Notes under the pieces: model-generated
Told to the model about the DNA's origin: nothing
What the model saw: the letters and a program-made list of their open reading frames with translations, nothing else
Database searches by the model: none
NCBI GenBank assembly: GCA_030066685.1
Contig: JASJBF010000007.1
Span: forward strand, 7,061-71,060
Reading direction: 5' to 3'
DNA: 64,000 bases
Source of the DNA: Kiloniellales bacterium
GTDB taxonomy: Bacteria; Pseudomonadota; Alphaproteobacteria; Kiloniellales; JAKSBE01
Translations under genes and position numbers: made by a program
Part shown: positions 12,972-41,640 of the stretch, in pieces
Numbering within the stretch: position 1 is the first letter of the stretch
Layout: each line of letters starts with the position of its first letter

Positions 12972-12985
12972 ATGACGAAAGTCAA
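12972..12985. promoter_or_regulatory. degenerate FNR/NNR-like box ATGAC-GAAA-GTCAA upstream of nnrS
   Basis: 8/10 match, about 120 nt upstream of the preferred nnrS ATG (12859). Would be inside the CDS if the longer start were used. Confidence 0.4.
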
Positions 12986-13160: not shown

Positions 13161-15368
13161 GTGACCGACAGGGCCGATCAGGGCGCGGGCAGCGCGACGG
13201 AGTCCCGGCCGGGACGCAGGCCGAGTCGATTCCAGATGATCCTGATCGCACTGCTCGGCGGGGTGCTTTGCGGGCTTTTCCTCGGCGACTATGCCGGAGC
13301 GCTGAGGAACGTCGGCGAGGTCTACGTGGGCCTGCTGCAGATGACGGTCCTGCCCTATATCGTCTTCTCGCTGATCGCCAGCATCGGGCGCCTTTCGGCG
13401 ACCCAGGGCAAGCGCTTGGCCCTGGTTTCGATCTCCGTGCTGGCCGCCCTCTGGGCCATCGGCGCGCTCACGGTCTTCTTCATATCCTTTTCGCTGCCGT
13501 CCCGAGTGACGGGCGCCTTCTTCAGCACCCATCTGATCGAACAGCCGGAGGCGGTCGACTTCATCCGGCTCTTCGTCCCGAGCAATCCCTTCCATTCCCT
13601 GGCGAACAACATCGCCCCGGCGGTGGTGATCTTCTGCCTGCTGTTCGGCATCGCGCTGATCACGGTCAGGAGCAAGGAGGCTTTGCTCGAGCACTTCGAT
13701 GTCATCCTCGCGACCTTGATCCGGGTCAACGGCTTCGTCGTCGCCCTGAGCCCGATCGGGATCTTCGCGATCGCGGCCACAGCCGCGGGAACCTTGAGCT
13801 TTGAGGAGGTCGGCCGCCTTCAGGCCTATCTGCTGACCTTCGGCTTCAGTGCCGTCCTTCTGACCTTCGTGGTCCTGCCGATGCTGATCGCCGCCTTCAC
13901 GCCCTTCACCTACAGGGACATCCTGGGCGTCTCGAAGAATGCACTGGTCACCGTCTTCGTGGTCCAGAGCCTTTTCGTGATCATCCCGATGCTGGCGGAG
14001 GGCGTGCGCGAGCTGATCGAGAAGTACCGCAAGGAAGGCGTTGAACCCGAGATGCGCCCGGAATTCGTGATTCCCCTCGCCTACCCCTTCCCGCATCTCG
14101 GCAAGGTGCTGACGCTCGTTTTCATTCCCTTTGCCGCCTGGTTCTATGGCAGCCCCATGGTCCTGGCGGACTATCCCGCCATCATCGGCACGGGCTTGGT
14201 CCTTTCATTCGGCAAGGTCGTGACGACGATTCCCTTTCTCCTTCACATGCAGGAACTGCCGGCGGACATCTTCCAGCTCTTCCTGCTGTCCAGCGTTTTC
14301 GCCGGCGGTCTGAGCGACCTGGTCGGCGCCATGCACCTCCTGGCCTTCACGACCCTGACCACCTGCGCGATCACCGGTCTGATCCGAGTCAGGAAAACGA
14401 AGCTTTTCGCGCTGATGATCCTCACGGCCGTCATCAGCAGTTCCATGATCTTCGGGACGCGCGCAATCCTGACCAGCGGCCCGGATGGCACCGACAGCAA
14501 GGCTGAGGTCGTCTTGAGCATGCATCTCATGCAGCCGATGGCGCAGGCCCGGATTCTGGAAACCGCGGCGCCCAACCCTGTTCCTCTCCTGCCGGGTCAA
14601 TCGAGGATCGATCGAATCCGCGAGCAGGGCGTCATTCGCATAGGCGTCAATGCGGGCGACCTTCCCTTCGCCTTCTACAATTCCAAGGGCGATCTCGTGG
14701 GGCTCGACATCGACATGGCGCATCGCCTGGCCAGCGATCTCGAAGTCCGCATCGACTTCGTGCCCTTTTCCGCCTCGACCCTTGCCGAGCAACTGGCGGC
14801 GGACCACTTCGACCTCGCCACCTCTGCACTCCCGGCGACCACGCGGCAATCGCTCAAGCATTCCCTGAGTAAACCCGTCATGGAGTACACGCTGGCGCTC
14901 GTCGTGCCCGAGCGTGTCAAGGCAGATTTCTCGGACCTCGAGACCATTCGAAGTCGCGGCGCCTTCACTCTCGGCGTCGGGGCGGGCAACGTCTTCGCCC
15001 ATCAGATCCTCGAGCGCTTCCCGAAAGCCAAAGTCGTCGAGCTGGAGTCCGAGACCGAGTTCTTCGAAGGTCAGAGGAGGGATCTGGACGCGCTCTTGAC
15101 CAGCGCGGAGGGAGGCTCGGCCTGGACTCTGATCCAGCCATTCTACGCGGTGGTCAATCCGTTTCCTCGACCTCAGAGACTGCCGGCGGCCTTTCCCTTC
15201 GCCGGGCCGGACCCGCGTTTCGAGCGCTTGCTCAACCACTGGATCGAGCTGCAGCAGACGAATGGTACGGTTCAAGAGCTCTTCGACCACTGGATCCTGG
15301 GCCGCGGTTCCGAGGCGAGAGGGCCGCGCTGGAGCGTCATTCGCGACGTCCTCCACTGGGTCGATTAG
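13161..15368 (+). CDS. fusion of a dicarboxylate/amino acid:cation symporter (DAACS/GltP-like) with a C-terminal family-3 periplasmic solute-binding domain
   Basis: 735 aa (GTG at 13161; alternative ATG at 13236). N-terminal part has LLQMTVLPYIVFSLIASIGRL and about 8 hydrophobic segments. C-terminal part has GVIRIGVNAGDLPFAFYNSKGDLVGLDIDMAHRLASDL, typical of SBP_bac_3. Confidence 0.65.
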   Translation: MTDRADQGAGSATESRPGRRPSRFQMILIALLGGVLCGLFLGDYAGALRNVGEVYVGLLQMTVLPYIVFSLIASIGRLSATQGKRLALVSISVLAALWAIGALTVFFISFSLPSRVTGAFFSTHLIEQPEAVDFIRLFVPSNPFHSLANNIAPAVVIFCLLFGIALITVRSKEALLEHFDVILATLIRVNGFVVALSPIGIFAIAATAAGTLSFEEVGRLQAYLLTFGFSAVLLTFVVLPMLIAAFTPFTYRDILGVSKNALVTVFVVQSLFVIIPMLAEGVRELIEKYRKEGVEPEMRPEFVIPLAYPFPHLGKVLTLVFIPFAAWFYGSPMVLADYPAIIGTGLVLSFGKVVTTIPFLLHMQELPADIFQLFLLSSVFAGGLSDLVGAMHLLAFTTLTTCAITGLIRVRKTKLFALMILTAVISSSMIFGTRAILTSGPDGTDSKAEVVLSMHLMQPMAQARILETAAPNPVPLLPGQSRIDRIREQGVIRIGVNAGDLPFAFYNSKGDLVGLDIDMAHRLASDLEVRIDFVPFSASTLAEQLAADHFDLATSALPATTRQSLKHSLSKPVMEYTLALVVPERVKADFSDLETIRSRGAFTLGVGAGNVFAHQILERFPKAKVVELESETEFFEGQRRDLDALLTSAEGGSAWTLIQPFYAVVNPFPRPQRLPAAFPFAGPDPRFERLLNHWIELQQTNGTVQELFDHWILGRGSEARGPRWSVIRDVLHWVD

Positions 15369-16717
15369 GACCTGCCGGCCGGCTGGGTCATCTCGGCAAA
15401 GCGGCGGCCGGCATAGCGTGCGGCGAAGATCCAGACCAGGATCAACGGCACGGTGATGGCGCTCAGCCAGCGGATCGTTTCGAAGTCCGTAAAGACCGCG
15501 GTGACGCCCAGGCTGATCCAAACCGCGAGAGCCTTGGCGAAGCGCTGGAGGAACATGTCGATGAAGGCCTTGGCCTTGTATTTCTCGTCCTTGGTCGTCG
15601 GAACGTAGAGGGATTCCTTGGCCGATTGGTTAATCGAGTAGCTGAAGCCGTTGTCGGCGGTGTTCAGCAAGCTGCCCATCCAGAGAATCGGAATGACCAT
15701 GAAGCCGGCCGAGCCGCCCAGGATGGCAATCGGCAGGACCAGCAGCGCGATCCCCACGCCGAGACGAGTCATAATCAGGCTGGTCAGAAAAAGCTGGACC
15801 AGAAATGCGACGCTGTTGGTGATTGCGAAGACGGTCGCGAACTGGGCACCGATCGCCGGGCCTTGCAGGTAGTGCGCGACGGTGCTGGTGAATTGGAAGT
15901 CGAGGATGGTCGAGACGATTTCATAGATCCCGACGATCGCGACAATTGCGAGAAGATAGGGAGAGCGGAAGACCAGCTTGGCGCCCTCAAGCGCCGGGTT
16001 GCCGCCCTTGTTCAGTCCGGGGTTCGCGGCCGTTGGGTGCGGTTCCGGCTCCGGCCGAAGCTCGGTCGCCTCCAAGCGCGCCACCAATCGGCCGGCGGCA
16101 AAGGCCACCAGCAGGATTGCCAGGCCGACGCCGAATGTGATCCAGAGCCAGCCCACGTTGTCAACGCTGCCGATGAAGCGCGCCACGACCATTGACCCGA
16201 CAACCCCGCCGGTCACCCCGCCGAGCCCGACCAGGCCGTAGAGGCGCTTGGCGGCATCGGGCGTCACGCTGTCGTTCAGAAATGCGAAGAACGTCGCCAC
16301 CATCAGGGTCGAGAAGAGATCGCCGAAGAGGTAGAAGCTCCAGACCGTGAGATCGCCCGGCTCATTGATCACCAACGTGTAGGCGACGTAGCTCGCCAGG
16401 ATGAAGCCGGTGAAGATGAAGGTGAGCTGCTGCCTGCGGTAGCTGTTGGCCAGCCAGGAGAACACCACAACAGCCACAAAGGCTACGATCATGTTCAACT
16501 GCTTGGCGAGCAACTCAGCCTGAGATGCCGTCAGCAGCAAGCCCAGCAGATCGAAGCCGCCTTCGTCGTAAAACTCAATGAAGAGCGACTTCTTGATCGG
16601 CTTGAGGATCCAGAAGCTGGTGATGACCAGAAAGAAATAGGTGAACATCAGGAGCGCAAAGGGCAGCTCCGAGCGCTTGACGGTGAAAATTGCCTTGAAG
16701 GGGTTGTTCGTGGTCAT
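15365..16717 (-). CDS. TLC/Npt-like nucleotide transporter family MFS protein (tentative)
   Basis: 450 aa, about 12 TM. The N-terminus FALLMFTYFFLVITSFWILKPIKKSLF resembles ATP/ADP-translocase-like carriers. Lower G+C and A/T-rich codons. Confidence 0.5.
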   Translation of the reverse strand: MTTNNPFKAIFTVKRSELPFALLMFTYFFLVITSFWILKPIKKSLFIEFYDEGGFDLLGLLLTASQAELLAKQLNMIVAFVAVVVFSWLANSYRRQQLTFIFTGFILASYVAYTLVINEPGDLTVWSFYLFGDLFSTLMVATFFAFLNDSVTPDAAKRLYGLVGLGGVTGGVVGSMVVARFIGSVDNVGWLWITFGVGLAILLVAFAAGRLVARLEATELRPEPEPHPTAANPGLNKGGNPALEGAKLVFRSPYLLAIVAIVGIYEIVSTILDFQFTSTVAHYLQGPAIGAQFATVFAITNSVAFLVQLFLTSLIMTRLGVGIALLVLPIAILGGSAGFMVIPILWMGSLLNTADNGFSYSINQSAKESLYVPTTKDEKYKAKAFIDMFLQRFAKALAVWISLGVTAVFTDFETIRWLSAITVPLILVWIFAARYAGRRFAEMTQPAGRS

Positions 16718-22267: not shown

Positions 22268-23524
22268 TCAGGGCGAAAGGACGTGGGTCGCGTCGATGAC
22301 CTTCAGCCCGGATTGCCTCAGGTCCCGCAGAAGGGCTTCCCACTCTTCCACGCTGCGCGACGGGCCGAGCGCCCCCGAGATGTTCTCGAGCCGCTCGGCG
22401 GCGCGCTCCTCCGCCTCGAGACTGGTGATCACCGCGAGGCGATGGAAGAGCTCGGTCTCCAGGTGGCGCGGCAGTCGGACGTCGATCGACAGGCTCTCCG
22501 CCCCCTCGAGTTCGTGGGCCCGGGTCAGGGTCCGGGTGTGCAGGCGCGGCGCCGTCTTGCCGGCCCGCGCCCCGAGGACCCAGACCCGGGCCGGTGCCGC
22601 CCCGTTTGTGATCTTGTACTGGAGCCGGCAGAGCCGCGCGCCGGCACGGGTCCCGACGCGCTCGCCGGGCGAGAGCGCGGTCTCGACGATCTGCGGGTCG
22701 GCCGCGCCGAAGGTCACGGCGGCGCAGCTGTCCCCCTCGAGCGCGCGCAGCTCCACCGCGGCGAGCGATAGACCCGCCCGGCTCGGCAGGCTCCGGTCCT
22801 GCCGCATCCCGGCGTCGGCCGGCGCCAGGACCTGGCTGCCCCAGCCGGCGGCCATCAGGAGCGCGCTCGCCAGGCCGAAGCCGACCAGCGACCAGGCGAG
22901 AGCCCGTTCCTCCCCGGTATCGCGGGACGCCGCCAGCGAGGCGGCGCGCCCGCCGGCGCCGCGGAGCGGCGGCAAGCCGAGATGCCGCAGCACCTCGTCC
23001 GCCGAGCCGACGGGCAGGACGTCGGGATCCCGGCCGGCGGCCGATGGCTCCAGGTCTTTTCCATTGTCCCCGGGCAGGAAGAGCGTCACCGGCGTGCCCG
23101 AGTCCTCGAGGTCGCGGAACAGCGCCGAGGAGCTCCGGAGCTTCTCGCCGATATGGGAGACGGCGAGCACCTCACGATCCCGGTCAACCTCGCCGGTCAG
23201 CCAGATCACCCGGTCTGCGCTCTGGTTCCTCTCAGCGAGCCGCCCGGCCGCGAAGAGCGCATGCGCGACGAGGACGCCGAGTTGCCAGCTCAGCCCCGCC
23301 GAGATCGGCAGCGAGAGGTCGAGGCGGTAGGCCGGGTGCCCGAAGGCCGCCTCCAGTAGGCCGGTGGGCTTGCGGACGAAGGCGTCGTATCCCGGGCTGA
23401 TCGGCAGCGCAACGGCCTTGCAGTCGAGGCAGATCACCGACTTGACGTTCGGGTCCTCGGCGGTGATGCGCTGGACCTCGGCGGGGCCCTCGGTCGTCGC
23501 GATGTAGACTCTGACCTTGGTCAC
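22268..23524 (-). CDS. bitopic membrane protein with N-terminal Lon-protease-(S16)-like motif and extracytoplasmic C-terminal domain
   Basis: 418 aa. PISAGLSWQLGVLVAHAL...VIWLTGEVDRDREVLAVSHIGEKL parallels Lon PSAG...TGE..L.G.VLPIGG.KEK (Ser and Lys present). Central TM ALAWSLVGFGLASALLMAAGWG. Confidence 0.5.
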   Translation of the reverse strand: MTKVRVYIATTEGPAEVQRITAEDPNVKSVICLDCKAVALPISPGYDAFVRKPTGLLEAAFGHPAYRLDLSLPISAGLSWQLGVLVAHALFAAGRLAERNQSADRVIWLTGEVDRDREVLAVSHIGEKLRSSSALFRDLEDSGTPVTLFLPGDNGKDLEPSAAGRDPDVLPVGSADEVLRHLGLPPLRGAGGRAASLAASRDTGEERALAWSLVGFGLASALLMAAGWGSQVLAPADAGMRQDRSLPSRAGLSLAAVELRALEGDSCAAVTFGAADPQIVETALSPGERVGTRAGARLCRLQYKITNGAAPARVWVLGARAGKTAPRLHTRTLTRAHELEGAESLSIDVRLPRHLETELFHRLAVITSLEAEERAAERLENISGALGPSRSVEEWEALLRDLRQSGLKVIDATHVLSP

Positions 23525-24087
23525 GACAGAAAGACCTCGCTTTCGGGATGGCTCAGCGCCCGGACCAGGTCCGACTCGGCGTCGGCCAGAAGCTGAATGG
23601 TCCCGCCATCGGCGTCGGGCAGCGCATGTTTGACCAGGCGGTCGTCCGGCTGGGAGACGAAGAGGGTGCGCGGCGGCCCTGAGGTGAGGTCGAGAACGTC
23701 GATGACCACGTAGACCTGCGCGGGCTCGGCGCGGGACGGGCGCAGGCTGATCGTGAAACCGGCCCCGCGGCGGCTCGACTCGAGGCCGCTGCTGGCCGCG
23801 GCGAGCCGCGGCGCGTGATGGCGCGCGCGTTTGCGCAGCAGCCGCTCCATGTCACGCGCCAGGCCCGGGCGCGCCGACAAGGCCCGCTCCAGCGCTTCGC
23901 TCATGGGGCGCCGGGGATCGGTCACGTAGGCGTAGAGATCCGAGAAGCCGGCGGAGCGCTCCCCGGCATCCCGCCCTTCGGCGCCGGCCAGCAGGCCGTC
24001 AAGCGCCGAGAGCGCTTCGAAGGCCTGTCGCGCCGCGTCTTGTTGGTCTCGCGTGAAGCGTCTCCAGGTGTTGGTCATTTCGGACAC
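23521..24087 (-). CDS. hypothetical protein
   Basis: 188 aa. The stop overlaps the next start (ATGA-type). Its 5' end overlaps the upstream ORF by about 80-89 nt. Confidence 0.5.
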   Translation of the reverse strand: MSEMTNTWRRFTRDQQDAARQAFEALSALDGLLAGAEGRDAGERSAGFSDLYAYVTDPRRPMSEALERALSARPGLARDMERLLRKRARHHAPRLAAASSGLESSRRGAGFTISLRPSRAEPAQVYVVIDVLDLTSGPPRTLFVSQPDDRLVKHALPDADGGTIQLLADAESDLVRALSHPESEVFLS

Positions 24088-25726
24088 CGTAGATGATGAG
24101 AAACTGACTGCGGAAGGTCTGCCGGTCCGCCTCGAACTGGCTTTGCCAGTCGGTCTGGGGAAGCCTCACCCTGGAGAGGTGATCGCCGAAGGCGGAGAGT
24201 TCGCGCTCGAGCTCGAGCAGCGGCTCGATCGCAGCGACGAAGCCTTCCACGACCTCGGGGTCGCGGGCCTCGTCTTCCCGGAAGCCCTGCCTGGCGAGGC
24301 TCTTGAAGGCCTGCCTGGCGTCCTGCATCAGGGACGCCATCGCCGGTCCGGCGATCGAAGGATCTTCCAAACCCGGGAGCAGCCTTTCCCAGGGCTTGCC
24401 GACGGTCAGCGCCACGACGTTTCGGTGCTCACCCGCGCAGAGCAAGCGGCCACGGAAGGGACGCAGGTCGATGTCGGGCCGCAAGGCGACCGCGATCGTC
24501 AGGGCCTCCCAGCGGCGCGCGCGCAGCAGGACGTGAACGGTGGCGAGCAGAACGCGCTCGACATGGCGGCGAAGCTCGGCCAGGCGGACTCGCCGGCTTT
24601 CGTAGTCCATCGCCGGCGAGCCATCGATGACTCCCCGAAGGGCCTCGACCGGGGTCCGGCGCCGCAGGGCCTGGGAGATCCGGGTCTGGACCGCGCCGAA
24701 GACCTCGCTGCGCAGCAGGGACAGCGCCAGGGTGCGACTGACCGAGCCATGCTCGACCAGCCCTTCCAGCTCGGCGGCCTCGGTCTTGGTAAGGAACTTG
24801 ATCCGCCGGGCCGCCGTCTCGCGCAGCCGCGTCAGGCAGTCCTCGGTTTCGGCAAGGGCTTCGACCGCGATCTGCAGCTCCGCGGGATCGATCTCCCCGG
24901 CTTCCCGGTCCGGGCCGATCGCCCGCGGATGCGCAAGCGCCTGCCGGTCGCGGGCCAGGATCAAGGCCTGGCGCAGGCGTACGAAGCTCCGGAACACGGA
25001 CAGGAAGGTCCGGAAATCCGGCGTCTCGGCAGCCGATTCCGCCAGCCAGAAGCCCAGGATCGCCTCGTCGTCGATGGCCGTCTCGTCGAAGTCGCCGTCG
25101 TGGCGGCGGACCAGGTAGTCGGTCAGTCGATTGAAGTTGCGCTGGGTCTGGGCGCTGGGCAGGTGCGCGTTCAGGAAGCCGTAGAGGGCGCGGGACAGGT
25201 GCTTTGCGGTGTCGGAAACGGCGGCCGCCGTCGGGCCCTGCTCCAGCATGACCTGCAAGGCGTCGTCGAGCGCCCGGTAGCCGAGCACCGTGACCAGGAA
25301 CTCCATCAGGGCGGAGAGCAGCGGCATGCGGGCAAAGGCGACGCCAAAGCTGCCGTCGGCATAGACGATCTCGACACCGCTGTCGCTGGCCGAGATCCGC
25401 GGCTGCCCCTCGCCGCCGTTGCGCAGACGCGCGCCGATGAAGCCCCGGAAACCCGCGGCGCGTGCCGGGCCGCTGTCCCAGAACAGGCCTTCGTAGGAAC
25501 TCCGCCGCGTGCTGCAGGCCTTGGCGACGCCCACCAGATGGCAAAGCTCCAGCACGGCGGGCGCATAGCAGCGGCAGACGATGATCCGCGCCAGCTTGCG
25601 GCTGACCCCTGGCGAGAACTTGGCGGCACCCGCGCACTCGGCTTCGGCGACGATCCGGAAGGCGGCGTCGAGCTCCGGGCTCTTGCCCGCCTCCAGCAGC
25701 ATCCCCTCAGCCCCCACCGAGGACAT
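23999..25726 (-). CDS. large predicted alpha-helical cytoplasmic protein of unknown function
   Basis: 575 aa from MSSVGAEGMLLEAGK. No Walker A or other motif recognised. The ATG lies 1 nt after the stop of the upstream SLT gene. Confidence 0.6.
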   Translation of the reverse strand: MSSVGAEGMLLEAGKSPELDAAFRIVAEAECAGAAKFSPGVSRKLARIIVCRCYAPAVLELCHLVGVAKACSTRRSSYEGLFWDSGPARAAGFRGFIGARLRNGGEGQPRISASDSGVEIVYADGSFGVAFARMPLLSALMEFLVTVLGYRALDDALQVMLEQGPTAAAVSDTAKHLSRALYGFLNAHLPSAQTQRNFNRLTDYLVRRHDGDFDETAIDDEAILGFWLAESAAETPDFRTFLSVFRSFVRLRQALILARDRQALAHPRAIGPDREAGEIDPAELQIAVEALAETEDCLTRLRETAARRIKFLTKTEAAELEGLVEHGSVSRTLALSLLRSEVFGAVQTRISQALRRRTPVEALRGVIDGSPAMDYESRRVRLAELRRHVERVLLATVHVLLRARRWEALTIAVALRPDIDLRPFRGRLLCAGEHRNVVALTVGKPWERLLPGLEDPSIAGPAMASLMQDARQAFKSLARQGFREDEARDPEVVEGFVAAIEPLLELERELSAFGDHLSRVRLPQTDWQSQFEADRQTFRSQFLIIYGVRNDQHLETLHARPTRRGATGLRSALGA

Positions 25727-25727
25727 A

Positions 25728-26258
25728 TCAGATCGTCTCCTTCGCCAACTGCGCGCTGTAGAGCTCCTGCAGCCGCAGCACCCGTGCCACGTAGCGAGAG
25801 GTCGCGGGGATGACCCTTGCGTTCGGCAGGTCACCGACCGCGGAGCCTCCGTTGTAGTACGAGAGCGCCAGGTCGGTTCGTCCCCGATAGCGTTTCAGCA
25901 GGCGTTTCAGGAAATGCAGCCCAAGGCGCACGTTGATCCGCGGGTCCCAGAGCTGCTCGGCCCGGATGCCGTACTCGCCCATCGCCGTTCTCGGCATGAT
26001 CTGCATGACGCCCCGGGCGCCCTTGGGGCTCCGCGCCCGCGGATTGAAGTTCGATTCGGCGTGCGCCACGGCCAGGGCGAGCGAGACCGACACGCCCAGG
26101 CTGCGGGCCTCCCGCACCACCAGGGTCCTGACCCGACGCTTTTCTTCGGCCCGGTCGGCGGGCTTGTGGCCGAGCGCAGGGCCCGAGCAGCCGCCCAGGG
26201 CGAGGACGAGCATCGAAAGTTCGAGGGCCTTCCTTCGGCTGATCACGGTTCCAGGCAT
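25728..26258 (-). CDS. lytic transglycosylase (SLT domain) lipoprotein
   Basis: 176 aa. Lipobox LALGGC. AVAHAESNFNP (catalytic Glu-Ser), GARGVMQIMP, ALSYYNGG. Confidence 0.8.
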   Translation of the reverse strand: MPGTVISRRKALELSMLVLALGGCSGPALGHKPADRAEEKRRVRTLVVREARSLGVSVSLALAVAHAESNFNPRARSPKGARGVMQIMPRTAMGEYGIRAEQLWDPRINVRLGLHFLKRLLKRYRGRTDLALSYYNGGSAVGDLPNARVIPATSRYVARVLRLQELYSAQLAKETI

Positions 26259-27629: not shown

Positions 27630-28652
27630 GTCGACGATCTGCCAGGAGCCGTCCGGCTGGAGGCAGGCCGTGCCGTAGACCTCGGACTTTCTCCCGCCGA
27701 TCCACACCGCCCGCTGATACTCGCGGCAATAGGGCCGGCGGGGGTCGTAGCCCACCACCCTTCGCCCGAGGACCGGCGTCTCGACGGCCGGCGGGGGCGT
27801 CACGACTTTTGCCTCCGCGCTGCGCCGCAGGCCGTCAACCAGGTCCGCAGTGACCCGGCCGTCGACGCCGATCCCGGTCTCGGCCTGATACGCGCGGATC
27901 GCAGCCAGCGTCCGCGGCCCCAAGCGGCCGTCGATCGGGCCCGGGTCGTAACCGAGAGACCGCAGGTCCCGCTGCAGGCCTTCGATCACCCGTGGGTCCG
28001 GCAGGGGTGCCCCTGCCCCCGGCGACGGCCTCGGCTTGGTCGGCCCCGCTTCCGTCGTGGAGGCGAAATGGGAGACCGGCGGCAGGGAGACCCTCCGGGG
28101 CGCGGTCGCGGCGACAATGGTGCCGTCCTCGACCCTGACCGCGCGATAGGAGGCGACCGCCGAAGCGTCGCCCGCGAGGCGCAGCTTTCCGACGATGAGG
28201 ATCTGGGCCTGCGCGGTCCTCAGCAGCGCCGAGAGGGCGGCATCCAATTCGTCCTCGTCGCCGTGGATCTCGCGCACCTCGTCGACCAGGGCGCCGAGCG
28301 TCTCGCGCGCGACGAAGCGATGGCGGTTGCCCGACCGCCGGACCAGAGCGGCGAGAAGCCTGGCGTTGTATTCGTTGGCGACTTCGGCCGGGAGGGGGGC
28401 GGTCTTGTCCGAAAAGGGCCAGATTGCGATCCCCGTCCCCCGTCCTTCCGCAACCACACCGTCGGCCTCGTCGATCTGCTCGAGAAGCTCGGCCGCGAAG
28501 GCCTCGAAGATCTTCCGGTCCCCGCCAGAGGACGGCTCGGCCGCCGCGTCCCGGCTCGGCCAGGGGCCGAGGCCCAGGAGCAATAGCAATCCAAGGCCCA
28601 GCTTGAAGCACCCGCCTAGGCTCTGGAGCCCGACCTTTCTCTCACCAACCAT
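27627..28652 (-). CDS. secreted peptidoglycan-binding-domain protein
   Basis: 341 aa from MVGERKVGLQSLGGCFKLGLGLLLLL. PG_binding_1 signature LQRDLRSLGYDPGPIDGRLGPRTLAAIRAYQAETGIGVDG. C-terminal CREYQ...C...DGSWQIV. Confidence 0.7.
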   Translation of the reverse strand: MVGERKVGLQSLGGCFKLGLGLLLLLGLGPWPSRDAAAEPSSGGDRKIFEAFAAELLEQIDEADGVVAEGRGTGIAIWPFSDKTAPLPAEVANEYNARLLAALVRRSGNRHRFVARETLGALVDEVREIHGDEDELDAALSALLRTAQAQILIVGKLRLAGDASAVASYRAVRVEDGTIVAATAPRRVSLPPVSHFASTTEAGPTKPRPSPGAGAPLPDPRVIEGLQRDLRSLGYDPGPIDGRLGPRTLAAIRAYQAETGIGVDGRVTADLVDGLRRSAEAKVVTPPPAVETPVLGRRVVGYDPRRPYCREYQRAVWIGGRKSEVYGTACLQPDGSWQIVD

Positions 28653-29559
28653 CCCATGAGCCTCCGGCGTTCTCCCGTTTCGACCGCTTTGCGATCGTGA
28701 AGCTGTTGCCTGCGAAGAGGACGTCGCCCTCGATGCCCAGGTGCAGCAGCATCTTGCCAAGGTTCCGGTTCAGGCGGCTCTTCGGGCTCCGGGTCTCGTA
28801 CCAGTAGCTGTGAACCTGGCGGCTGCTCTGGACCGGCCGGAGATGCCGATAGCCCGAGAAGACGACCAGATACTCCTCGATCTCCGAGACCTCCGCCGGC
28901 GAGAATCCGTCGAAGACCAGGCTGTAGGCCGTCGAAAAGCCCTCGGCTCCCCCGCCTCCATTCCCGTCCTCCGCGCTTGCGCGACCGAGGCTCGGGGCCA
29001 GCTGATCCGCGAGCAGAACGCCCAGGTCGCGAGACAGCCGGCGGGCGTCGCGGCCGACGACCTCGAAGACGCAGGCCTCGTCGCAGTCCGCAGGCGCCCG
29101 CAGGGCCTCCGCCGACTTGACCTCGGCGCCGCCGAGGCGGCGTCCGCTGCGGACATCGACCAAGCGTCCGGCGATCCGGGCGGTGATCTTCGTCGTGTAG
29201 GTGAGCCGCTCGGCCCGAGCGTAGACCGTGAAAATCGCCGCCACATCCATGGGCGGCGCCTGCACGGCGCGGGCGATGTCGATGACCTCGGCATCCGTGC
29301 GCCGGCTTCGCCCTTGCGCGAAGTCGCCGAGGGTCACCGCGGTCTCGTCGTAGACCGCGAAGCCGGCGTCGTGGAGTTGCTGCCCGAGTTGCTCCAGGAC
29401 CGCCTTGACGACCCGGCTGTGGCGCGGGAGCGAGTCCTGGTCCGCGTCCTCGCCGACGACGATGAGGTTCGGAGCCTCAACGCCGAAGGACGGAAGGGCC
29501 AGGACCGAGGCGGAAAAGAACGACAGCGCCGCTACCGCCAATCGTGGCGCTCTTCGCAT
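28642..29559 (-). CDS. secreted protein of unknown function
   Basis: 305 aa. Signal peptide MRRAPRLAVAALSFFSASVLALP. The stop overlaps the downstream start by 11 nt. Confidence 0.6.
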   Translation of the reverse strand: MRRAPRLAVAALSFFSASVLALPSFGVEAPNLIVVGEDADQDSLPRHSRVVKAVLEQLGQQLHDAGFAVYDETAVTLGDFAQGRSRRTDAEVIDIARAVQAPPMDVAAIFTVYARAERLTYTTKITARIAGRLVDVRSGRRLGGAEVKSAEALRAPADCDEACVFEVVGRDARRLSRDLGVLLADQLAPSLGRASAEDGNGGGGAEGFSTAYSLVFDGFSPAEVSEIEEYLVVFSGYRHLRPVQSSRQVHSYWYETRSPKSRLNRNLGKMLLHLGIEGDVLFAGNSFTIAKRSKRENAGGSWDGW

Positions 29560-30415
29560 AGCGTGACCTCCCTGATGTCGGGCGCGACGTCACCGTCTTG
29601 GCCTGGTCCTGCGGATCCGCCGGAAACCGACTTTTCGCGCCCCTCTCCTGCTCCGTTGGAAGCCCAGGCCAAGGGGCCCGCCTTCCGGTGGAAAGGCCCC
29701 TCCCAGGCCTTCCGCGTCCTCGGTGATACGCCAGCGGGCCGAGATCCATCCCCGGGCGAACTCGGCTTTTCTGCGCGATCAACCCGGGACGTCGTGGCCG
29801 GCGGTTCCGGGCCCCCTCGCGCGGGGCCTCCCGTCGGCGTGAATCAGATCGGCGATCGGCCTCTCGGTGTCGCAGATCAGGCAGCGGAACCGTCCACGGC
29901 GGGCGACGGCAATGCTCCGAAAGGAAAAGAAGAAGCAGCCGCACCGGCAGGCGATCGTGATGCCGTCGCCCCGCTCCGTCACCCGAAGCGGAGATGTTGG
30001 GGCGGCGGAGCGATTGCGCTCAGACGCCGCGGCTCCTGGACGCCACGAAAGGACCGGCAGCCATTTCCGGAGCTTCGGCTTGCACGCAGCGAGGGGGGAA
30101 GCCAAGCCCGGGTTCCTGCCGGGGGAGATCTTTCTGCTGGCAGGGGAATTGGGCATGGACCTGGCTCCAAGTCGTCGGCGCTTTCGCCCTCGAGGCTATG
30201 AAAGGGCCAGAGACGAGAACGCGTCGTCAAAGCGGATCCGGCGCGCGGGCGAAACGGAGCGCAGGCCCGGGAGCCAGCCGCCGTACCATGGCGCCCGGTC
30301 GCCGACAGCGCCGGCCAGGTTATGTGGGAGGGCCTGCCCGTCCTGCGCAGCATGGCCGGTCAGTTCGGGCTTCTGTAATGGCGTGCAGCGGGACGGCAGC
30401 GGGAGGCCGCAGGGG

Positions 30416-30708
30416 ATGAGCCGGCTCGAGCTGACGCCAGGCGCCTTCATCCGACACTTGCAAGGCCTCCTGGCTAGGCTTCCGGCCGACCTTCGCACAT
30501 CGCCGCCATCGCCGGGCCGTCGGCGTCTGGGAAGTCGAGCCTGGCGGCGAAGGCCGAAGAAGAGCTGAACCGGGAGGCCCCGGGCAGCTGCGCGGTCCTG
30601 CCCATGGACGGCTTCCACTACGACGAAGAGGTTCCGGTCGCGCGCGGGCTGGCGCCTGCCCGGAAGAGGCCGACCTCTGCGCGCCGAGACTCGCCCCGGC
30701 CGATCCAT
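30416..30708 (+). pseudogene. decayed P-loop kinase gene (PRK/uridine-kinase-like), frameshifted and 3'-truncated at a repeat
   Basis: Frame 1 gives MSRLELTPGAFIRHLQGLLARLPAD. After a frame change (TAG upstream in the second frame) it reads HIAAIAGPSASGKSSLAAKAEEELNREAPGSCAVLPMDGFHYDEE. The reading frame then degenerates and abuts the repeat at 30709. Confidence 0.5.
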
Positions 30709-37645: not shown

Positions 37646-38245
37646 ATGATCCTTATCCCAGACCTCAGCGGAACCGTCGACAGATGCATCGCGCGCTTCG
37701 ACGTTTGCCCCTGGTCGACGCTTGCCGGAAGCAGCACGCTTCGGCGCGAGCCCTTGTCCCGGCGGCGCGACCATATCCTCTATACGCCCGAACAGAGACG
37801 CCGGCGGGACCAGTCGCCCTGGACTCTGGTTCAAGGGGTTCTGGCGCCGCTCCAGTTCGGCATCTTCCTGATCAGCCTCGTCCTCGTGCTCCGATTCCTG
37901 GCAACGGGTCTCGGCTTCGAGGCCGCGACCGCTTCTATCGTCGTCAAGACAGTTGCGCTCTACACGATCATGATCACCGGAGCGATCTGGGAGCGTGCCG
38001 TTTTCGGCCAGTATCTCTTCGCGCCCGCGTTTTTCTGGGAAGACGTGGTCAGCATGCTGGTGATCGCTCTACACACGGCCTACTTGATCGTTCTGGCAAC
38101 CCAGATTCTCGACGCCCAGGGGCAAATGCTGCTCGCGCTCGCGGCTTACGCGGCCTACGTGATCAACGCGGCCCAGTTCCTCCTGAAGCTGCGCGCCGCC
38201 CGGCGAGAGGCCAGCCCAGGCGGCGCGGCCTTCCGCCCGGCCTGA
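37646..38245 (+). CDS. bchF: 3-vinyl bacteriochlorophyllide hydratase
   Basis: LYTPEQRRRRDQSPWTLVQGVLAPLQFGIFLISLVLVL and downstream TMs are typical of BchF. The true start may be internal (for example TTG 37754), since the N-terminal ~35 aa look non-conserved. Confidence 0.85.
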   Translation: MILIPDLSGTVDRCIARFDVCPWSTLAGSSTLRREPLSRRRDHILYTPEQRRRRDQSPWTLVQGVLAPLQFGIFLISLVLVLRFLATGLGFEAATASIVVKTVALYTIMITGAIWERAVFGQYLFAPAFFWEDVVSMLVIALHTAYLIVLATQILDAQGQMLLALAAYAAYVINAAQFLLKLRAARREASPGGAAFRPA

Positions 38246-38259: not shown

Positions 38260-39657
38260 TCAGCGCCGCCGGAAGCGCACCCGAATTCCCTGCGCCGAGC
38301 GCGTCGTCAGCCGGGTGACCGGCCGCACTGACCGCGGATCCACGGCCTCGACCTCGTATCGTCGGATCAGGCGGGCGAGGATCAGGGTGCTTTCCACCGT
38401 CGCAAAGGCAGCGCCGACGCAAAGCCGGCGACCTGCCCCGAAGGGCAGATAGGCGCTCTGGGTCCACTCCTGCTCCCGCTCCGGCAGGAAGCGGTCGGGA
38501 TCGAAATGCTCCGGATTCCGCCACAGCGCCCTGTGGCGATGCATGATCCAGGGCGAGATCATGATCATGGCGCCGCGCGGCACCGCGAGGGCGCCGATTC
38601 GCCCCGGCTCGAGCGCGACCCGCGGGATGAAGGCGAGCGGCGGATAGAGCCGCAAGGTTTCGCGAAAGACGTTGCGCACGAAGGTGAGCCTCTTGGTCGC
38701 CTCGAAGCCGATCGGACCCTGCGCGCAGACCGACTCGACCTCGGCCCGGATCCGTGCGGCGGCCTCGGGCCTCTGCGACAGGATGAAGAAGGCCCAGGCC
38801 AGCGCCCCAGCCGTGGTCTCGTGTCCGGCCAGAAAGAAGACGCCGATCTGGTCGATCAGCTCTTCGCGCGAAAATCCCTCGCCGGTCTCCGGATCCCGCG
38901 CCGCGATGACCTCGCCGGCGATATCGTTGAGCGGCCGGTCCGCGGTGTCGAGCCGCGCATCGATCAAGCTGCCTAAATGCCGGCGGATCAGCATCGAGGC
39001 CTGAACCACCGAACGAGGCTGCTTGACGGCCGCCCAGGGCCGGCCGAGCCAGAGCCGCAGGATCTGAACGTTGGCGACCGAGTCCTGAAACCGCGCGAAC
39101 GCCTTGAAGATCTCACGCGCCGCTTGGCTTTCCAGGGACACCGAAAAGATGGTCCGGTAGATGATGTCCGCCGTTAGGTGGCTCATCGCCGTCTCCAGGG
39201 AGACGGCTTCGCGGCACTCGGCCAGGGTGTCCAGGCGGCGCTCGAAGTCGGCGACGGCCGCCGCCATCCCTCTAAAGGCCCGGCTCACCTGCATGTGGGA
39301 GAAGGCCGCCTCGATCATCCGCCGTTGGCGCCGCCAGGTCTCGCCGCTCGACACGAAGATGCTGTCCCCGACCAGGGGCTGCAGGGCGCCCACCATGAGG
39401 TCGTTTTTGGGAAAGCTCTCGGCCTCTCCGGTCAGAATCTGGCGCACCAGGGTCGGATCGTTGACCAGGACGATCTTGCGGCGGGTCCGCCCGACCTCGG
39501 TCAGCAAAACCCGGTAGGCCTCGTCCGGCATCAGGCTGAGCAGGTCGCGCTGGCTGCTGAGGATGCCCTTCAGCAGGGCCCGGACCGGCGTGGTCGGGAC
39601 CGGCGCCGGCGGCCGATAGAGCCCTTCCGGCCCGGCCGTCGTCCGGTCAAGCGGCAT
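38260..39657 (-). CDS. cytochrome P450
   Basis: 465 aa from MPLDRTTAG. I-helix FFLAGHETTA, ExxR (FRETLR), and heme loop FGAGRRLCVGAAFA. The start overlaps the crtA stop by 11 nt. Confidence 0.85.
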   Translation of the reverse strand: MPLDRTTAGPEGLYRPPAPVPTTPVRALLKGILSSQRDLLSLMPDEAYRVLLTEVGRTRRKIVLVNDPTLVRQILTGEAESFPKNDLMVGALQPLVGDSIFVSSGETWRRQRRMIEAAFSHMQVSRAFRGMAAAVADFERRLDTLAECREAVSLETAMSHLTADIIYRTIFSVSLESQAAREIFKAFARFQDSVANVQILRLWLGRPWAAVKQPRSVVQASMLIRRHLGSLIDARLDTADRPLNDIAGEVIAARDPETGEGFSREELIDQIGVFFLAGHETTAGALAWAFFILSQRPEAAARIRAEVESVCAQGPIGFEATKRLTFVRNVFRETLRLYPPLAFIPRVALEPGRIGALAVPRGAMIMISPWIMHRHRALWRNPEHFDPDRFLPEREQEWTQSAYLPFGAGRRLCVGAAFATVESTLILARLIRRYEVEAVDPRSVRPVTRLTTRSAQGIRVRFRRR

Positions 39658-40390
39658 TGACGCCAGCCTCGTCTGCGCAGGCGACCACGGAGGCGGTCGA
39701 AAGCGGCTGGCCCCCCTCCCAGCGGCCCGCCGCATGCAGCACGCGGAAGCGCGCGAAGAGCTCCTCGCTGAACCAGCCGCCCTCCCGGACGCGGGCGATC
39801 GCCTCTGCGTGAAAGCCACGGTAGGCGAAAGCTTCCATGGCGCGGCGGTCCGACCAGATGGAGAAGGTGACCTGATGCAGCCAGGGGACTTCGCCCAGGC
39901 CGATCTTGAAGAGCAGCTGCGGCTGCGCGCGGATGGCCGCGCTGATGTTCGGCACACGCCGCCAGAAGGCCAAGGCGTGCTGCGGCTTGACCGAGGCGCG
40001 CGTCAGCACGGCGATCGCGCTATCCTCCGAAAGGCCGGGCTCGGACGAAAGGGTGAAGGGCGCCGCGCGGTCCCATTGGCCGCGGCATTGGGTCGCCCCG
40101 AGGAAAACCGTCCAGTCTTCGGCCGCGTGGGCGCGATAGCGTCGATAGACTGCGCTCTCCGCCACGCGGGCCTGGCCTTCCGCCAACGACGGCCAGGTGG
40201 CCAGGATCGCGTAGACCGAGAAATTGGGAAAAGGGTGAAAGCCCTCGCGCGTCCCGCTGCCCAGCAGCTTGTGGAAGCCGATGCCCGGGATCGCGCGCAG
40301 GGGTCGGCGGGCGAAGAGCATCTGGGAGAAGGCCCACAGCTTGTTCCCGGACCCTTCGAAGCGGAAGAAGGAGAGAGACACCGCTTTCAT
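39647..40390 (-). CDS. crtA: spheroidene monooxygenase (acyclic carotenoid 2-ketolase)
   Basis: 247 aa. MKAVSLSFFRF...KLWAFSQM...GLGEVPWLHQVTFSIWSD...GWFSEELFARF matches the CrtA family as I recall it. Divergent from bchI as in Rhodobacter. Confidence 0.85.
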   Translation of the reverse strand: MKAVSLSFFRFEGSGNKLWAFSQMLFARRPLRAIPGIGFHKLLGSGTREGFHPFPNFSVYAILATWPSLAEGQARVAESAVYRRYRAHAAEDWTVFLGATQCRGQWDRAAPFTLSSEPGLSEDSAIAVLTRASVKPQHALAFWRRVPNISAAIRAQPQLLFKIGLGEVPWLHQVTFSIWSDRRAMEAFAYRGFHAEAIARVREGGWFSEELFARFRVLHAAGRWEGGQPLSTASVVACADEAGVNAA

Positions 40391-40427
40391 GTTCCTACCG
40401 CTCGGAAAAAGCGCTATACACTTTGGC

Positions 40428-40445
40428 TGTCAATTAAACTCGACA
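40428..40445. promoter_or_regulatory. PpsR/CrtJ palindrome TGT-N12-ACA (TGTCAATTAAACTCGACA) in the crtA-bchI divergent region
   Basis: Exact motif. Confidence 0.65.
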
Positions 40446-40611
40446 CTGGCGCCGCTGTCACGCCATATTGCTTGCACCGGAAGGGTGGTCTTCGCTGCGA
40501 TGAACGGGATCGGCCGCAAGGCACTGCAGACGGCGCCGCGGGTCTCGGTGATGCCGGGCCTCGGCAGAACCGGCTGTCCTGCTAGACTTCGCCAGCCTTA
40601 GGACAGAGTGC

Positions 40612-41640
40612 GTGCAAAGAGCCTTTCCCTTTTCCGCTATCGTCGGCCAGAACCAGATCAAGCTCGCCCTCTTGATCGTCGCGGTCGATCCTTCGATCGG
40701 CGGGGTTCTGATCTTCGGCGACCGCGGAACCGGCAAGTCAACCGCGATCCGCGGCCTCGCCGCCCTGCTGCCGAAGATGCGGGCGATCGTCGGTTGTCCC
40801 TATGGCTGCGCGCCCGAGACCACCGCGGGGCTCTGCGACCACTGCGATGACAAGACGGGAAAAGCCGCGCCCAAGAGCCATCTGGTGCCGGTGCCGGTGA
40901 TCGACCTGCCGCTCGGGGCCACCGAAGACCGGGTGGTCGGGGCGCTGGACCTCGAACGCGCCCTGACCGTCGGAGAGAAGGCCTTTGAGCCGGGCCTGCT
41001 CGCCCGGGCCAACCGCGGCTTCCTCTACATCGACGAGGTCAACCTGCTGGAGGACCACTTGGTCGACCTGCTGCTCGACGTCGCCGCCTCGGGCGAGAAC
41101 CTGGTCGAGCGCGAGGGCTTGAGCGTACGGCATCCGGCCCGCTTCGTGCTGATTGGCAGCGGCAATCCCGAAGAAGGCGAGCTGCGCCCGCAACTCCTGG
41201 ACCGCTTCGGCCTCTCGGTCGACGTCCAGACCCCCGGCGACGTCGCCACGCGGGTCGAGGTGGTGCGGCGCCGGGACTCCTTCGAACGCGATCCGGAGGC
41301 CTTCGGCACCCGGTGGCAGGCGGAGGACGACAAACTGCGTCGGCGGATCGGCGCGGCGCGCAAGCGGCTCGGCGAGGTCGAGGTCCCGGACGCGGTCTAC
41401 GAGCAGGGTGCCGAGCTTTGCCTCGCCCTGGGGACCGACGGGCTGCGCGGCGAACTGACGCTGATCCGCGCCGCGCGCGCCGCTGCGGCCCTGGAGGGCC
41501 GGAAGCCCGTCGCCCGCCGTCATCTGCAACAGGTCGCCCCCCTCGCCCTCAGGCACCGGCTGCGCCGCGACCCGCTCGACGATGCCGGCTCCAGTGTCCG
41601 GGTCGAGCGCGCGATCGAGGAGGTTTTTGGGTCGCGATGA
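40612..41640 (+). CDS. bchI: Mg-chelatase ATPase subunit I
   Basis: 342 aa (GTG start). [15 protein letters not shown], Walker [10 protein letters not shown]. Confidence 0.95.

Follow-up and report, generated by a model that had tools for sequence, protein, structure and literature searches.

A cytochrome P450 overlapping crtA belongs to a clade that recurs in photosynthesis gene clusters and is a candidate carotenoid oxygenase

Introduction

What is a cytochrome P450 doing among the genes for carotenoid and bacteriochlorophyll synthesis, and which molecule might it oxidize? The question is raised by a 64-kb stretch of DNA (the window) in which a P450 gene sits between bchF and crtA. Carotenoid-hydroxylating P450s encoded near crt genes exist in bacteria, namely CYP175A1, the Thermus beta-carotene hydroxylase, and CYP287A1, the Deinococcus carotenoid C-2 hydroxylase; they belong to other CYP families and act on ring end groups, and we know of no case of either in a photosynthesis gene cluster. 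In the literature that we searched, no report places a P450 in these clusters or in the carotenoid pathway of purple bacteria or AAPs, and a paper on Citromicrobium lists one as a flanking gene only (PMC3338782). A sequence-only reading of the locus had taken the coupling to crtA as a sign of carotenoid tailoring, with a step on a bacteriochlorophyll or quinone side chain as a second option. Here we consider both options in light of the gene, its junction with crtA and its relatives in other genomes.

Results

The P450 gene is intact and starts within crtA

The P450 reading frame (38260..39957, minus strand) has 565 open codons, and the start supported by homologues, the ATG at 39657, yields a protein of 465 aa, in line with the 465-471 aa of close relatives. 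The conserved N-terminal motif, LYRPPAPVP, starts at residue 13; in other family members the start codon lies 2-3 residues ahead of it. Two upstream starts, GTG 39957 and ATG 39735, were rejected because the extension is unconserved and lies in the region read as crtA, and homologues begin just before LYRPPAP. The protein matches PF00067 over residues 59-447 (249.2 bits against a cut-off of 22.8, E 9.5e-74) and carries the I-helix (A/G)Gx(D/E)T(T/S), K-helix ExxR, PERF-like and Cys-ligand loop FxxGxRxCxG signatures, as AGHETT at 277, ETLR at 333, FDPDRF at 385 and FGAGRRLCVG at 406. Residues A277, G278, H279, E280 and T281 of the first motif and F406, G407, G409, R411, C413 and G415 of the last are unchanged in all 48 family members aligned. 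The AF2 model (pLDDT 86.6, pTM 0.89) finds 1655 Foldseek matches in the PDB at E<=0.001, and the best 50 of the 1655 are all P450s, with a probability of 1.0 each. GC3 of the gene is 0.84. The earlier description of a 465-aa P450 with FFLAGHETTA and FGAGRRLCVG is borne out, and from the intact gene and the full set of catalytic motifs we predict a functional heme-thiolate P450 monooxygenase.

The P450 start does overlap the crtA stop, as the sequence-only reading had claimed: the ATG precedes the first base of the crtA TGA by 8 nt, the two genes have 11 nt in common (ATGCCGCTTGA), and the junction reads ...GTC A/ATG CCG CTT GA/C. Together with a GAGG motif inside crtA (Table 1), the overlap suggests that translation of the two genes is coupled, and they are predicted to be co-transcribed. 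The crtA product matches the NCBIfam equivalog NF045923 over the full length (1-226) at 304.3 bits against a cut-off of 300. At the other end bchF closes the crtA-P450 unit, its stop codon lying 14 nt from that of the P450. Sequencing runs containing the sequence are marine-sediment DNA metagenomes only.

The pair begins at the spacer between crtA and the divergent bchI. The window holds 10 TGT-N12-ACA palindromes where 2.9 are expected, and 8 of these 10 lie in or at spacers between photosynthesis genes. A perfect one, of the PpsR/CrtJ type, stands upstream of crtA, and there is a sigma-70-like match on the plus strand at 40440-40469. Such palindromes are usually paired in promoter regions, and pairs occur in other spacers of the window (37402/37476, 50049/50074 and 52217/52243); in the crtA-bchI spacer (40391-40611) no second TGT-N12-ACA was found, even when one mismatch was allowed. 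The proposal that a PpsR-site crtA/bchI promoter drives the unit thus keeps its upstream palindrome and the gene overlap, but has to make do with just one PpsR site.

Table 1. Features of the crtA-P450 locus, in positions of the window
Feature	Coordinates	Strand	Basis or remark
bchF, convergent with P450	37646..38245	+	Pfam BCHF E 1.4e-62, TIGR02020
Cytochrome P450 CDS, second gene of crtA-P450 pair	38260..39657	-	465 aa, Pfam PF00067
Heme-thiolate loop codons FGAGRRLCVG, residues 406-415, Cys413	38413..38442	-	motif position
I-helix oxygen-activation motif AGHETT codons, residues 277-282	38812..38829	-	motif position
P450 start (ATG 39657-39655) / crtA stop (TGA 39649-39647) overlap, 11 nt	39647..39657	-	sequence read
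crtA (spheroidene monooxygenase / acyclic carotenoid 2-ketolase), 247 aa	39647..40390	-	NCBIfam NF045923 equivalog
GAGG ribosome-binding-like motif, within crtA CDS	39667..39670	-	9 nt upstream of P450 ATG (-13 to -10)
Divergent crtA / bchI intergenic region	40391..40611	.	ORF map
PpsR/CrtJ-type palindrome TGTCAATTAAACTCGACA	40428..40445	.	perfect TGT-N12-ACA, 38 nt upstream of crtA ATG
bchI, first of divergent bchI-bchD-bchO-crtI-crtB run	40612..41640	+	Pfam Mg_chelatase/AAA_lid_2, ORF map

The P450 clade recurs in photosynthesis gene clusters

The family set comprises 242 non-redundant loci (P450 at least 49% identical) from Alpha-, Beta- and Gammaproteobacteria and Gemmatimonadota, 145 of them well flanked (4 kb or more on each side). 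Genes of the crt, bch or puf type occur at 202 of the 242 loci and at 134 (92%) of the well-flanked ones, and the gene is not unique to the window; pigment genes were not seen nearby at about 8% of well-flanked loci. The usual neighbors are crtD, crtI or crtC. We define the photosynthesis-cluster-associated clade by an identity of at least about 50%, the N-terminal YRPPAP motif and a location among crt/bch genes; it recurs within the photosynthesis gene clusters of more than 200 species-level genomes from several phyla, and the window P450 shows the motif and is 51-87% identical to its members. Linkage to the crt genes or the photosynthesis cluster holds across at least four classes or phyla despite many rearrangements of the neighbors, a persistence that is difficult to account for unless co-expression is under selection. 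Among the more distant P450 loci from the same scans, taken as a negative control (at most 36% identity, L100-L142), crt genes were found only at L111. Substrate-recognition stretches (FPKNDLMVGAL..., FFLAGHETT and RLYPP..F.PR) are invariant or almost invariant across the clade, which suggests one common substrate type. A tblastn search of a plasmid collection gave a best match of 44% identity (Microbulbifer, Polaromonas) and no plasmid-borne copy from a photosynthesis gene cluster, and we use these matches solely to mark the boundary of the clade. Cultured carriers include Roseococcus thiosulfatophilus RB-3, Rubritepida flocculans DSM 14296, Roseibium denhamense JCM 10543 and Novosphingobium sp. 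AAP83.

Gene order varies between lineages. Four related genomes (L001, L021, L143 and L145) share the order crtA>P450> <bchF, and L001, L143 and L145, whose P450s are 71-74% identical, keep the longer arrangement crtI<bchO<bchD<bchI / crtA>P450> <bchF / ppaA>ppsR>bchG>pucC. The crtA/P450 junction is an ATGA overlap in L021 and a gap of 3-18 nt in the other three. Checking for co-occurrence with crtA showed that the coupling is restricted to one lineage: crtA stands beside the P450 at 5 of the 242 family loci and CrtA is absent from 237. In five MAGs the P450 lies directly downstream of crtC, with an ATGA or GTGA overlap in L010, L019, L073 and L078 and a distance of about 200 nt in L049. Start/stop overlaps with crtA and with crtC arose in different lineages, and no overlap with a bch gene was seen. 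Gemmatimonadota MAGs have memX>P450> beside crtI, cruF and crtB, and the flanks fetched for these loci contain no bch genes; in phototrophic Gemmatimonas MAGs the P450 lies inside the cluster, adjoining cruF and crtF. The nearest sister group of the crtA-coupled clade is found in housekeeping contexts (L048 Limibaculum sediminis, L006, L062 and L065).

Elsewhere the P450 has other partners. memX, which encodes a DUF2306-like membrane protein, is a partner at 94% of well-flanked loci, and a gene for an ATP-grasp ligase is adjacent at 77% and overlaps the P450 stop in R. thiosulfatophilus RB-3. A tblastn search of the whole 64-kb window found no homologue of either, and the crtA-coupled relatives lack them as well. 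The MemX protein is His-rich and has the UniRef label DUF2306; it has no match in Pfam or NCBIfam, and its AF2 model (pLDDT 91) has no fold match in the PDB (best E 0.25). The only match of the ATP-grasp partner is PRK06849 'hypothetical protein', and none of its relatives has a solved structure. ATP-grasp enzymes activate carboxylates.

The closest solved relatives by sequence are carotenoid hydroxylases

Against solved sequences, the family profile scores best with the CYP97 structures (6j94 E 1e-69, 6l8h E 1e-53): CYP97A3 leads (E 1e-69, 239 bits), then come CYP184A1 (218), CYP46A1 (195) and CYP3A4 (187). Identity to CYP97A3 and CYP97C1, the nearest in sequence, is no more than 26-27%. In Foldseek the window P450 model matches CYP184A1, CYP97C1 and CYP97A3 (with retinal) best, and the top matches also include many BM3 structures, which like CYP184A1 are fatty-acid-binding P450s. 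CYP97A3 (LUT5) and CYP97C1, the plant plastid carotene beta- and epsilon-ring hydroxylases, act on C40 carotenoids and have the heme-thiolate P450 fold, the I-helix AGHET(T/S)A and the Cys loop in common with the window P450. They are eukaryotic, plastid-targeted enzymes for C-3 of cyclic end groups, whereas the window pathway (crtC, crtD, crtF, crtA) leads to acyclic carotenoids and the partners of our P450 family are crtA in the window and memX with ATP-grasp elsewhere. Membership of CYP97, the nearest family by profile score, is excluded for the window P450, which in the Foldseek alignments is 24-27% identical to CYP97A3 and CYP97C1 against the 40% of the CYP-family convention. On these comparisons the clade is CYP97-related but separate. 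CYP184A1 of Streptomyces avermitilis (PDB 7wzl/7wzm) is the top Foldseek match (E 1e-24, 28% identity) and third-best profile match; its substrate channel is long and hydrophobic, its solved structure contains bound oleic acid, and it has no pigment or crt link. Identities of 26-28% are too low for reading the substrate of the P450.

As is general for P450s, the enzyme is predicted to depend on O2 and a ferredoxin-type electron donor. CrtA is a heme enzyme that depends on O2 and on electrons from an external donor; it tailors the methoxylated psi end and is encoded in the same predicted operon here. Its donor in vitro is reduced ferredoxin (PMC13488962), and its heme is His-ligated and five-coordinate, and it is not a P450 (PMC10604819, PMC13488962); its fold is unrelated, ferredoxin-like/DUF3291-type (weak Pfam match).

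Discussion

We favor, with a probability of roughly 0.6, the reading that CrtA and the P450 come from a two-gene minus-strand operon and that the P450 performs an O2-dependent oxidation of an acyclic carotenoid. The operon would start at the PpsR-site crtA/bchI spacer and end against bchF, and the two proteins would be made together. The P450 would act on a psi-end carotenoid of the spheroidene/spirilloxanthin series and, in the window lineage, would run alongside 2-ketolation by CrtA as an aerobic tailoring branch. Candidate reactions are hydroxylation of the psi end or a nearby position (C-2, C-2' or C-4), or oxidation of a methyl group to an alcohol, aldehyde or acid; the latter would fit the carboxylate-activating ATP-grasp partner of most other lineages. 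It is gene context that points to a carotenoid as the substrate, and the family is probably an undescribed oxygen-dependent carotenoid-modifying enzyme. The carotenoid half of the sequence-only reading thus survives as the best reading of the comparative context, but coupling to crtA, present at so few loci, is not the key to the function.

Some observations count against a carotenoid substrate. No redox-partner gene was identified, and there are the fold matches to fatty-acid P450s, the housekeeping sister group, the roughly 8% of loci without pigment genes and the missing memX and ATP-grasp genes of the window. In cultured Halieaceae, groups related to P450-bearing MAGs, plain spirilloxanthin is the reported primary carotenoid, and a C30 carotenedioate is reported from Roseococcus (PMC12654162). 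No product of the P450 type is known in Halieaceae or Roseococcus.

We tentatively speculate that the P450 and memX, usually with ATP-grasp and sometimes with a GNAT gene, might form an unrecognized accessory module, widely conserved among photosynthesis gene clusters, for making oxidized acyclic carotenoids, such as methyl-oxidized aldehydes or carboxyls of the rhodopinal or gemmatoxanthin type, or carotenoic-acid conjugates, and that CrtA replaces the membrane partner in the window lineage.

As to the chemistry, a rather doubtful version is stepwise oxidation of a carotenoid methyl group (C-16/17 at the terminus or C-19/20 within the chain) through alcohol and aldehyde to acid, giving cross-conjugated aldehyde or carboxyl carotenoids, with the adjacent ATP-grasp enzyme ligating the acid in most lineages. 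The frequency of the ATP-grasp gene and its overlap in Roseococcus speak for it, as does the place of the P450 beside cruF and crtF in phototrophic Gemmatimonas MAGs. Genes for the rhodopinal-type (PMC10604819) and gemmatoxanthin-type (PMC8342508) methyl oxidations are stated to be unknown. Against this chemistry, neither G. phototrophica AP64 nor producers of bacteriorubixanthinal of the Erythrobacter type are among the matches listed, which is weak counter-evidence from pattern-limited scans. For Gemmatimonas, P450s of AP64 and G. groenlandica were not among the matches listed in a pattern-limited single-sequence scan, a protein search and an alignment scan, which returned MAGs only; in the alignment scan the query locus itself was also absent among the matches listed. 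With the P450 of Novosphingobium AAP83 as seed, a pattern-limited scan gave Sphingomonadales of the Novosphingobium type but no Erythrobacter, Porphyrobacter or Erythromicrobium, and may be taken as weak evidence against a link to bacteriorubixanthinal. The window lineage has no ATP-grasp gene, and methyl-oxidized carotenoids are not known from Halieaceae.

An unlikely variant is that the P450 is a hydroxylase or ketolase for C-2 (or C-2') of the acyclic end, an O2-dependent analogue or helper of CrtA, which in Gemmatimonadota would supply the C-2 hydroxylation of oscillol-type carotenoids. We know of no gene assigned to the oscillol C-2 hydroxylase of Gemmatimonas, and the P450 of Gemmatimonadota MAGs stands beside crtI and cruF, a 1,2-hydratase family gene (PF04240). 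In the window it is coupled to the C-2 ketolase, and in Rhodospirillales MAGs (L003, L004, L036 and L043) it is divergent from bchI, in the position that crtA has in the window. Against this, CrtA alone is enough for 2-ketolation in Rhodobacter and Rubrivivax (PMC10604819), so another enzyme for C-2 from that operon would be redundant; 2-hydroxy acyclic carotenoids are not reported for the cultured proteobacterial carriers, and the ATP-grasp partner is left unexplained.

We consider it improbable that the P450 acts on another lipid or pigment of photosynthesis, be it a bacteriochlorophyll intermediate, its esterifying alcohol, a quinone or another isoprenoid, and shares the cluster through co-regulation with the photosystem. 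The window P450 does lie between bchF and bchI, and bch genes are the nearest recognized genes at some loci, as bchI< P450> in L003, L004, L023, L036 and L043, as bciB> P450> in L008, L012, L032 and L289, and with bchC or bchP adjoining in L060, L097 and L301. But crtD, crtI and crtC dominate the neighbors, overlaps are with crtC or crtA and never with bch genes, and the solved proteins nearest in sequence are carotenoid hydroxylases. What chiefly favors a carotenoid over bacteriochlorophyll or quinone is that the same clade sits beside crtI-cruF-crtB in Gemmatimonadota, where the fetched flanks hold no bch; the side-chain option of the sequence-only reading is disfavored on this ground. Very improbable is a P450 without a part in pigment synthesis, a general hydroxylase of lipids, fatty acids or xenobiotics that was carried with the cluster by chance or through horizontal transfer of the entire block: the oleic-acid enzyme CYP184A1 and then BM3 as best structural matches, the loci and sister group in housekeeping contexts and some P450-bearing taxa with no unusual major carotenoid reported would suit it, but not linkage that survives neighbor rearrangements in at least four classes or phyla, start/stop overlaps of independent lineages with crtA and crtC, or distant P450s that are almost never near crt genes.

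Purple-bacterial photosynthesis gene clusters are among the best-mapped in microbiology, and a P450 clade, mostly with two uncharacterized partners, recurs there. If the P450 is a carotenoid oxygenase, it would be a new enzyme for the production of oxidized carotenoids; whether it is one is directly testable in the cultured carriers. It would also add an O2-dependent branch to the acyclic pathway, which would matter for photoprotection and light harvesting in aerobic phototrophs.

A P450 gene overlapping crtA

The gene 5' of the P450 gene is crtA, since its product scores above the cut-off of the NCBIfam spheroidene monooxygenase model (see the table). The junction of the two genes reads GTCAATGCCGCTTGACC, with a GAGG 9 nt ahead of the P450 ATG, and at the other end 14 nt separate the stop codons of the convergent P450 and bchF genes, which argues that crtA and the P450 gene would make up a closed two-gene unit. 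The minus-strand frame ending at 38260 is open as far back as 39957; the ATG at 39657 is supported as the probable start by the closest relatives, which are 465-471 aa long, and by the conserved N-terminal motif LYRPPAPVP, which begins at residue 13 here and just 2-3 residues after the start of several family members. The sequence-only reading had described a 465-aa P450 whose start overlaps the end of crtA, and the Pfam p450 match (E 9.5e-74), the expected motifs and the shared 11 nt confirm it. AlphaFold, supplied with 48 relatives, gave a confident model (pLDDT 86.6), whose top PDB matches by Foldseek are all P450s.

That reading had also placed a PpsR-type palindrome in the crtA/bchI spacer; one perfect site is present there, and no second TGT-N12-ACA was found in these 221 nt, whereas sites are paired in the ppaA/bchF, crtD/crtE and crtF/bchC spacers. 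Across the window there are 10 of these palindromes where 2.9 would be expected, the majority in or at spacers that separate photosynthesis genes. Since the sequencing runs containing the window sequence are DNA metagenomes from marine sediment only, co-transcription of crtA and the P450 gene is something we infer.

Features of the window and of its P450 (blank cells, no value reported)
Feature	Position	Strand	Remarks
NosR-like Fer4_5 membrane protein	887-2989		
Long ORF	4748-7165	-	cytochrome b (PF00033), 4Fe-4S dicluster and FlpD-like domains
NnrS	11669-12985		
735-aa ORF	13161-15368	+	sodium:dicarboxylate symporter domain (SDF) fused to C-terminal family-3 solute-binding domain
TLC-type ATP/ADP transporter-like MFS protein	15365-16717	-	
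Several long high-GC3 ORFs	within 22268-25834 and 28642-30708	-	no Pfam match
bchP, pucC/lhaA, bchG, ppsR, ppaA		-	left part of cluster, in order
bchF	37646-38245	+	
P450	38260-39657	-	465 aa
crtA/P450 overlap	39647-39657	-	11 nt common to both genes
crtA	39647-40390	-	304.3 bits, cut-off 300 (NCBIfam spheroidene monooxygenase equivalog)
crtA/bchI spacer			221 nt; single perfect TGT-N12-ACA at 40428-40445
bchI-bchD-bchO-crtI-crtB-tspO		+	after crtA
crtC, crtD		-	after tspO
crtE-crtF-bchCXYZ-pufLMC		+	after crtD
Aminotransferase-class gene, puhE		-	right end of cluster
PpsR-type palindromes	34469, 37402/37476, 40428, 50049/50074, 52217/52243		
I-helix motif AGHETT	residue 277		P450
ETLR	residue 333		P450
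FDPDRF	residue 385		P450
Cys loop FGAGRRLCVG	residue 406		P450

From about 31 kb on, the window is a Rhodobacter-like photosynthesis gene cluster (PGC), in which pufB/pufA, expected just 5' of pufL, carry no annotation and the aminotransferase-class gene at the end is probably hemA. Here bchF stands alone, convergent with the P450 gene, whereas in Rhodobacter it heads the bchFNBHLM operon; bchF is also isolated in L001, L021, L143 and L145, four related P450 loci. Respiratory and redox genes are found in the first ~20 kb, where the long cytochrome b ORF adjoins SCO1-like, heme O synthase-type (UbiA) and cytochrome oxidase subunit genes, a Crp/Fnr regulator, and the NosR-like and NnrS genes, together a redox/respiratory island flanking the PGC. 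The ATP/ADP transporter-like gene sits in what is apparently a free-living marine-sediment alphaproteobacterium, and the ORFs lacking a Pfam match lie at the left PGC border, between a transglycosylase/peptidoglycan-binding pair and bchP.

Distribution and gene neighborhoods

One-genome-per-species collections were scanned four times, the queries being the window P450, one homologue each from Gemmatimonas and Novosphingobium, and a family alignment; four context look-ups were added for relatives of the window P450, and the window's PGC proteins and recurrent neighbor proteins were mapped on every locus by tblastn. After duplicate removal, 242 loci remained whose P450 shares 49% identity or more with that of the window. 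Genes of the crt or bch/puf type lie within the fetched flank in 202 of them (83%), and in 134 of the 145 well-flanked ones (92%), those with 4 kb or more to either side. This linkage is no selection effect, because P450 similarity was the sole ranking criterion. As a control, just one of the more distant P450 loci from the same scans (at most 36% identity) lies near crt genes. Carriers include Alphaproteobacteria (Rhodospirillales, Acetobacteraceae, Sphingomonadales, Hyphomicrobiales, Stappiaceae, Hyphomonadaceae, Caulobacterales), Burkholderiales, Woeseiaceae, Steroidobacterales and Halieaceae among the Beta- and Gammaproteobacteria, and Gemmatimonadota. Two loci binned as Acidobacteria (L248 and L261; 'Candidatus Sulfopaludibacter sp.' and 'Acidobacteria bacterium Ga0077551') share PGC gene order with the Hyphomonadaceae MAG loci L251 and L268 at very similar identity values, which points to mis-binning or recent transfer.

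Coupling to crtA, the association stressed by the sequence-only reading, does recur in related loci but in only 5 of the 242: the window's own contig, L001 (a black-band-disease Rhodospirillales MAG), L143 (a Kiloniellales MAG) and L145 (a TARA ocean scaffold), these three with P450s 71-74% identical, and L021 (59%). The order crtA>P450> <bchF is kept in the four crtA-coupled loci read across the wider locus, and the fifth, L144, of the L143 lineage, has it too. The commonest immediate neighbors are others. A ~250-aa membrane protein, here called memX, has five invariant histidines and is found in 94% of the well-flanked loci, usually divergent from the P450 gene; a ~390-aa ATP-grasp protein is found in 77%. 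Typically the module has crtD or crtI on one side and crtC on the other; the ATP-grasp gene comes after the P450 gene, in some cases with an added GNAT gene. Examples are Roseococcus thiosulfatophilus RB-3 (L206, 5173-8510), Novosphingobium sp. AAP83 (L146) and Roseibium denhamense (L220); in R. thiosulfatophilus the P450 stop and the start of the ATP-grasp gene overlap (ATGA), and next comes a predicted small GNAT-like ORF. UniRef labels memX DUF2306; it has no match in Pfam or NCBIfam, and its confident model (pLDDT 91) no fold match in the PDB, while the sole match of the ATP-grasp protein is a 'hypothetical protein' model. Both are absent from the 64-kb window. Among well-flanked loci, memX is missing only from the crtA-coupled ones, a single Hyphomicrobium locus and a small group outside PGCs; in a neighbor-joining tree the crtA-coupled clade branches near the base, beside that last group.

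Predicted function

We propose, at a probability of roughly 60%, that the P450 is an O2-dependent heme-thiolate monooxygenase that would be co-produced with CrtA, from the promoter bearing the PpsR site, and would oxidize an acyclic carotenoid of the spheroidene/spirilloxanthin series. In different lineages the gene overlaps or abuts crtA or crtC, never a bch gene; it lies directly 3' of crtC in five Rhodospirillales/Acetobacterales MAGs, with start/stop overlaps (ATGA or GTGA) in L010, L019, L073 and L078. In Gemmatimonadota MAGs (L225, L227, L229-L233, L272) the memX-P450 pair adjoins crtI, cruF (PF04240) and crtB, and no bch gene was found in the fetched flanks; in the complete chromosome of Gemmatimonas sp. 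DEX182b (L233, 6163-14267) it sits between clpX and clpP-tig, a housekeeping protease cluster, right beside crtI-cruF-crtB. Substrate-recognition stretches are invariant or nearly so in 48 members, window protein included, which argues for one substrate type across the clade. By family profile, CYP97A3, a carotene beta-hydroxylase of Arabidopsis, scores best among solved sequences (E 1e-69, 239 bits); CYP97C1 also ranks high, and CYP184A1, CYP46A1 and CYP3A4 score below CYP97A3. Foldseek ranks CYP184A1, CYP97C1 and CYP97A3 (solved with retinal) at the top. At only 24-28% identity to its solved matches the window P450 falls outside CYP97, and we take the resemblance as a lead, not proof, of a carotenoid substrate.

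Two chemistries are candidates. Hydroxylation or ketolation at or near the psi end (C-2/C-2'/C-4) agrees with the link to crtA and, in Gemmatimonadota, with the cruF-crtI neighborhood; it would be partly redundant with CrtA. Stepwise oxidation of a carotenoid methyl to an aldehyde or acid agrees with a carboxylate-activating ATP-grasp partner and with published statements that no genes are known for oxidations of the rhodopinal and gemmatoxanthin types (PMC10604819; PMC8342508).

In structural comparison, fatty-acid P450s match just as well. That the substrate is some photosynthetic lipid or pigment other than a carotenoid seems unlikely to us, and an unrelated, hitch-hiking hydroxylase even more so. 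According to a 2025 review (PMC12654162), the primary carotenoid of Halieaceae is plain spirilloxanthin, and for Roseococcus a C30 carotenedioate is given; we know of no P450-type product from the groups that carry the gene. Among the matches listed in our pattern-limited scans, this P450 was found neither for Gemmatimonas phototrophica (gemmatoxanthin) nor for Erythrobacter-type bacteriorubixanthinal producers.

Carotenoid P450s include CYP97 in plants and CYP175A1 and CYP287A1 in bacteria. To our knowledge, the acyclic pathway of anoxygenic phototrophs has none assigned to it; CrtA is the sole O2-dependent tailoring enzyme we know of in that pathway. CrtA is explicitly not a P450 (PMC10604819, PMC13488962), and in the full-text literature, subscription papers aside, no account of a P450 in these PGCs turned up. 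The P450 gene as such has nothing unusual about it; what is so far undescribed is where it is conserved and with which partners. Its function is directly testable in cultured carriers, among them Roseococcus thiosulfatophilus RB-3, R. suduntuyensis, Rubritepida flocculans, Dankookia rubra, Roseicella aquatilis, several Roseomonas/Falsiroseomonas species, Roseibium denhamense, Novosphingobium sp. AAP83, Sphingomonas sp. 37zxx and Brevundimonas sp. TWP2-3-4b2.
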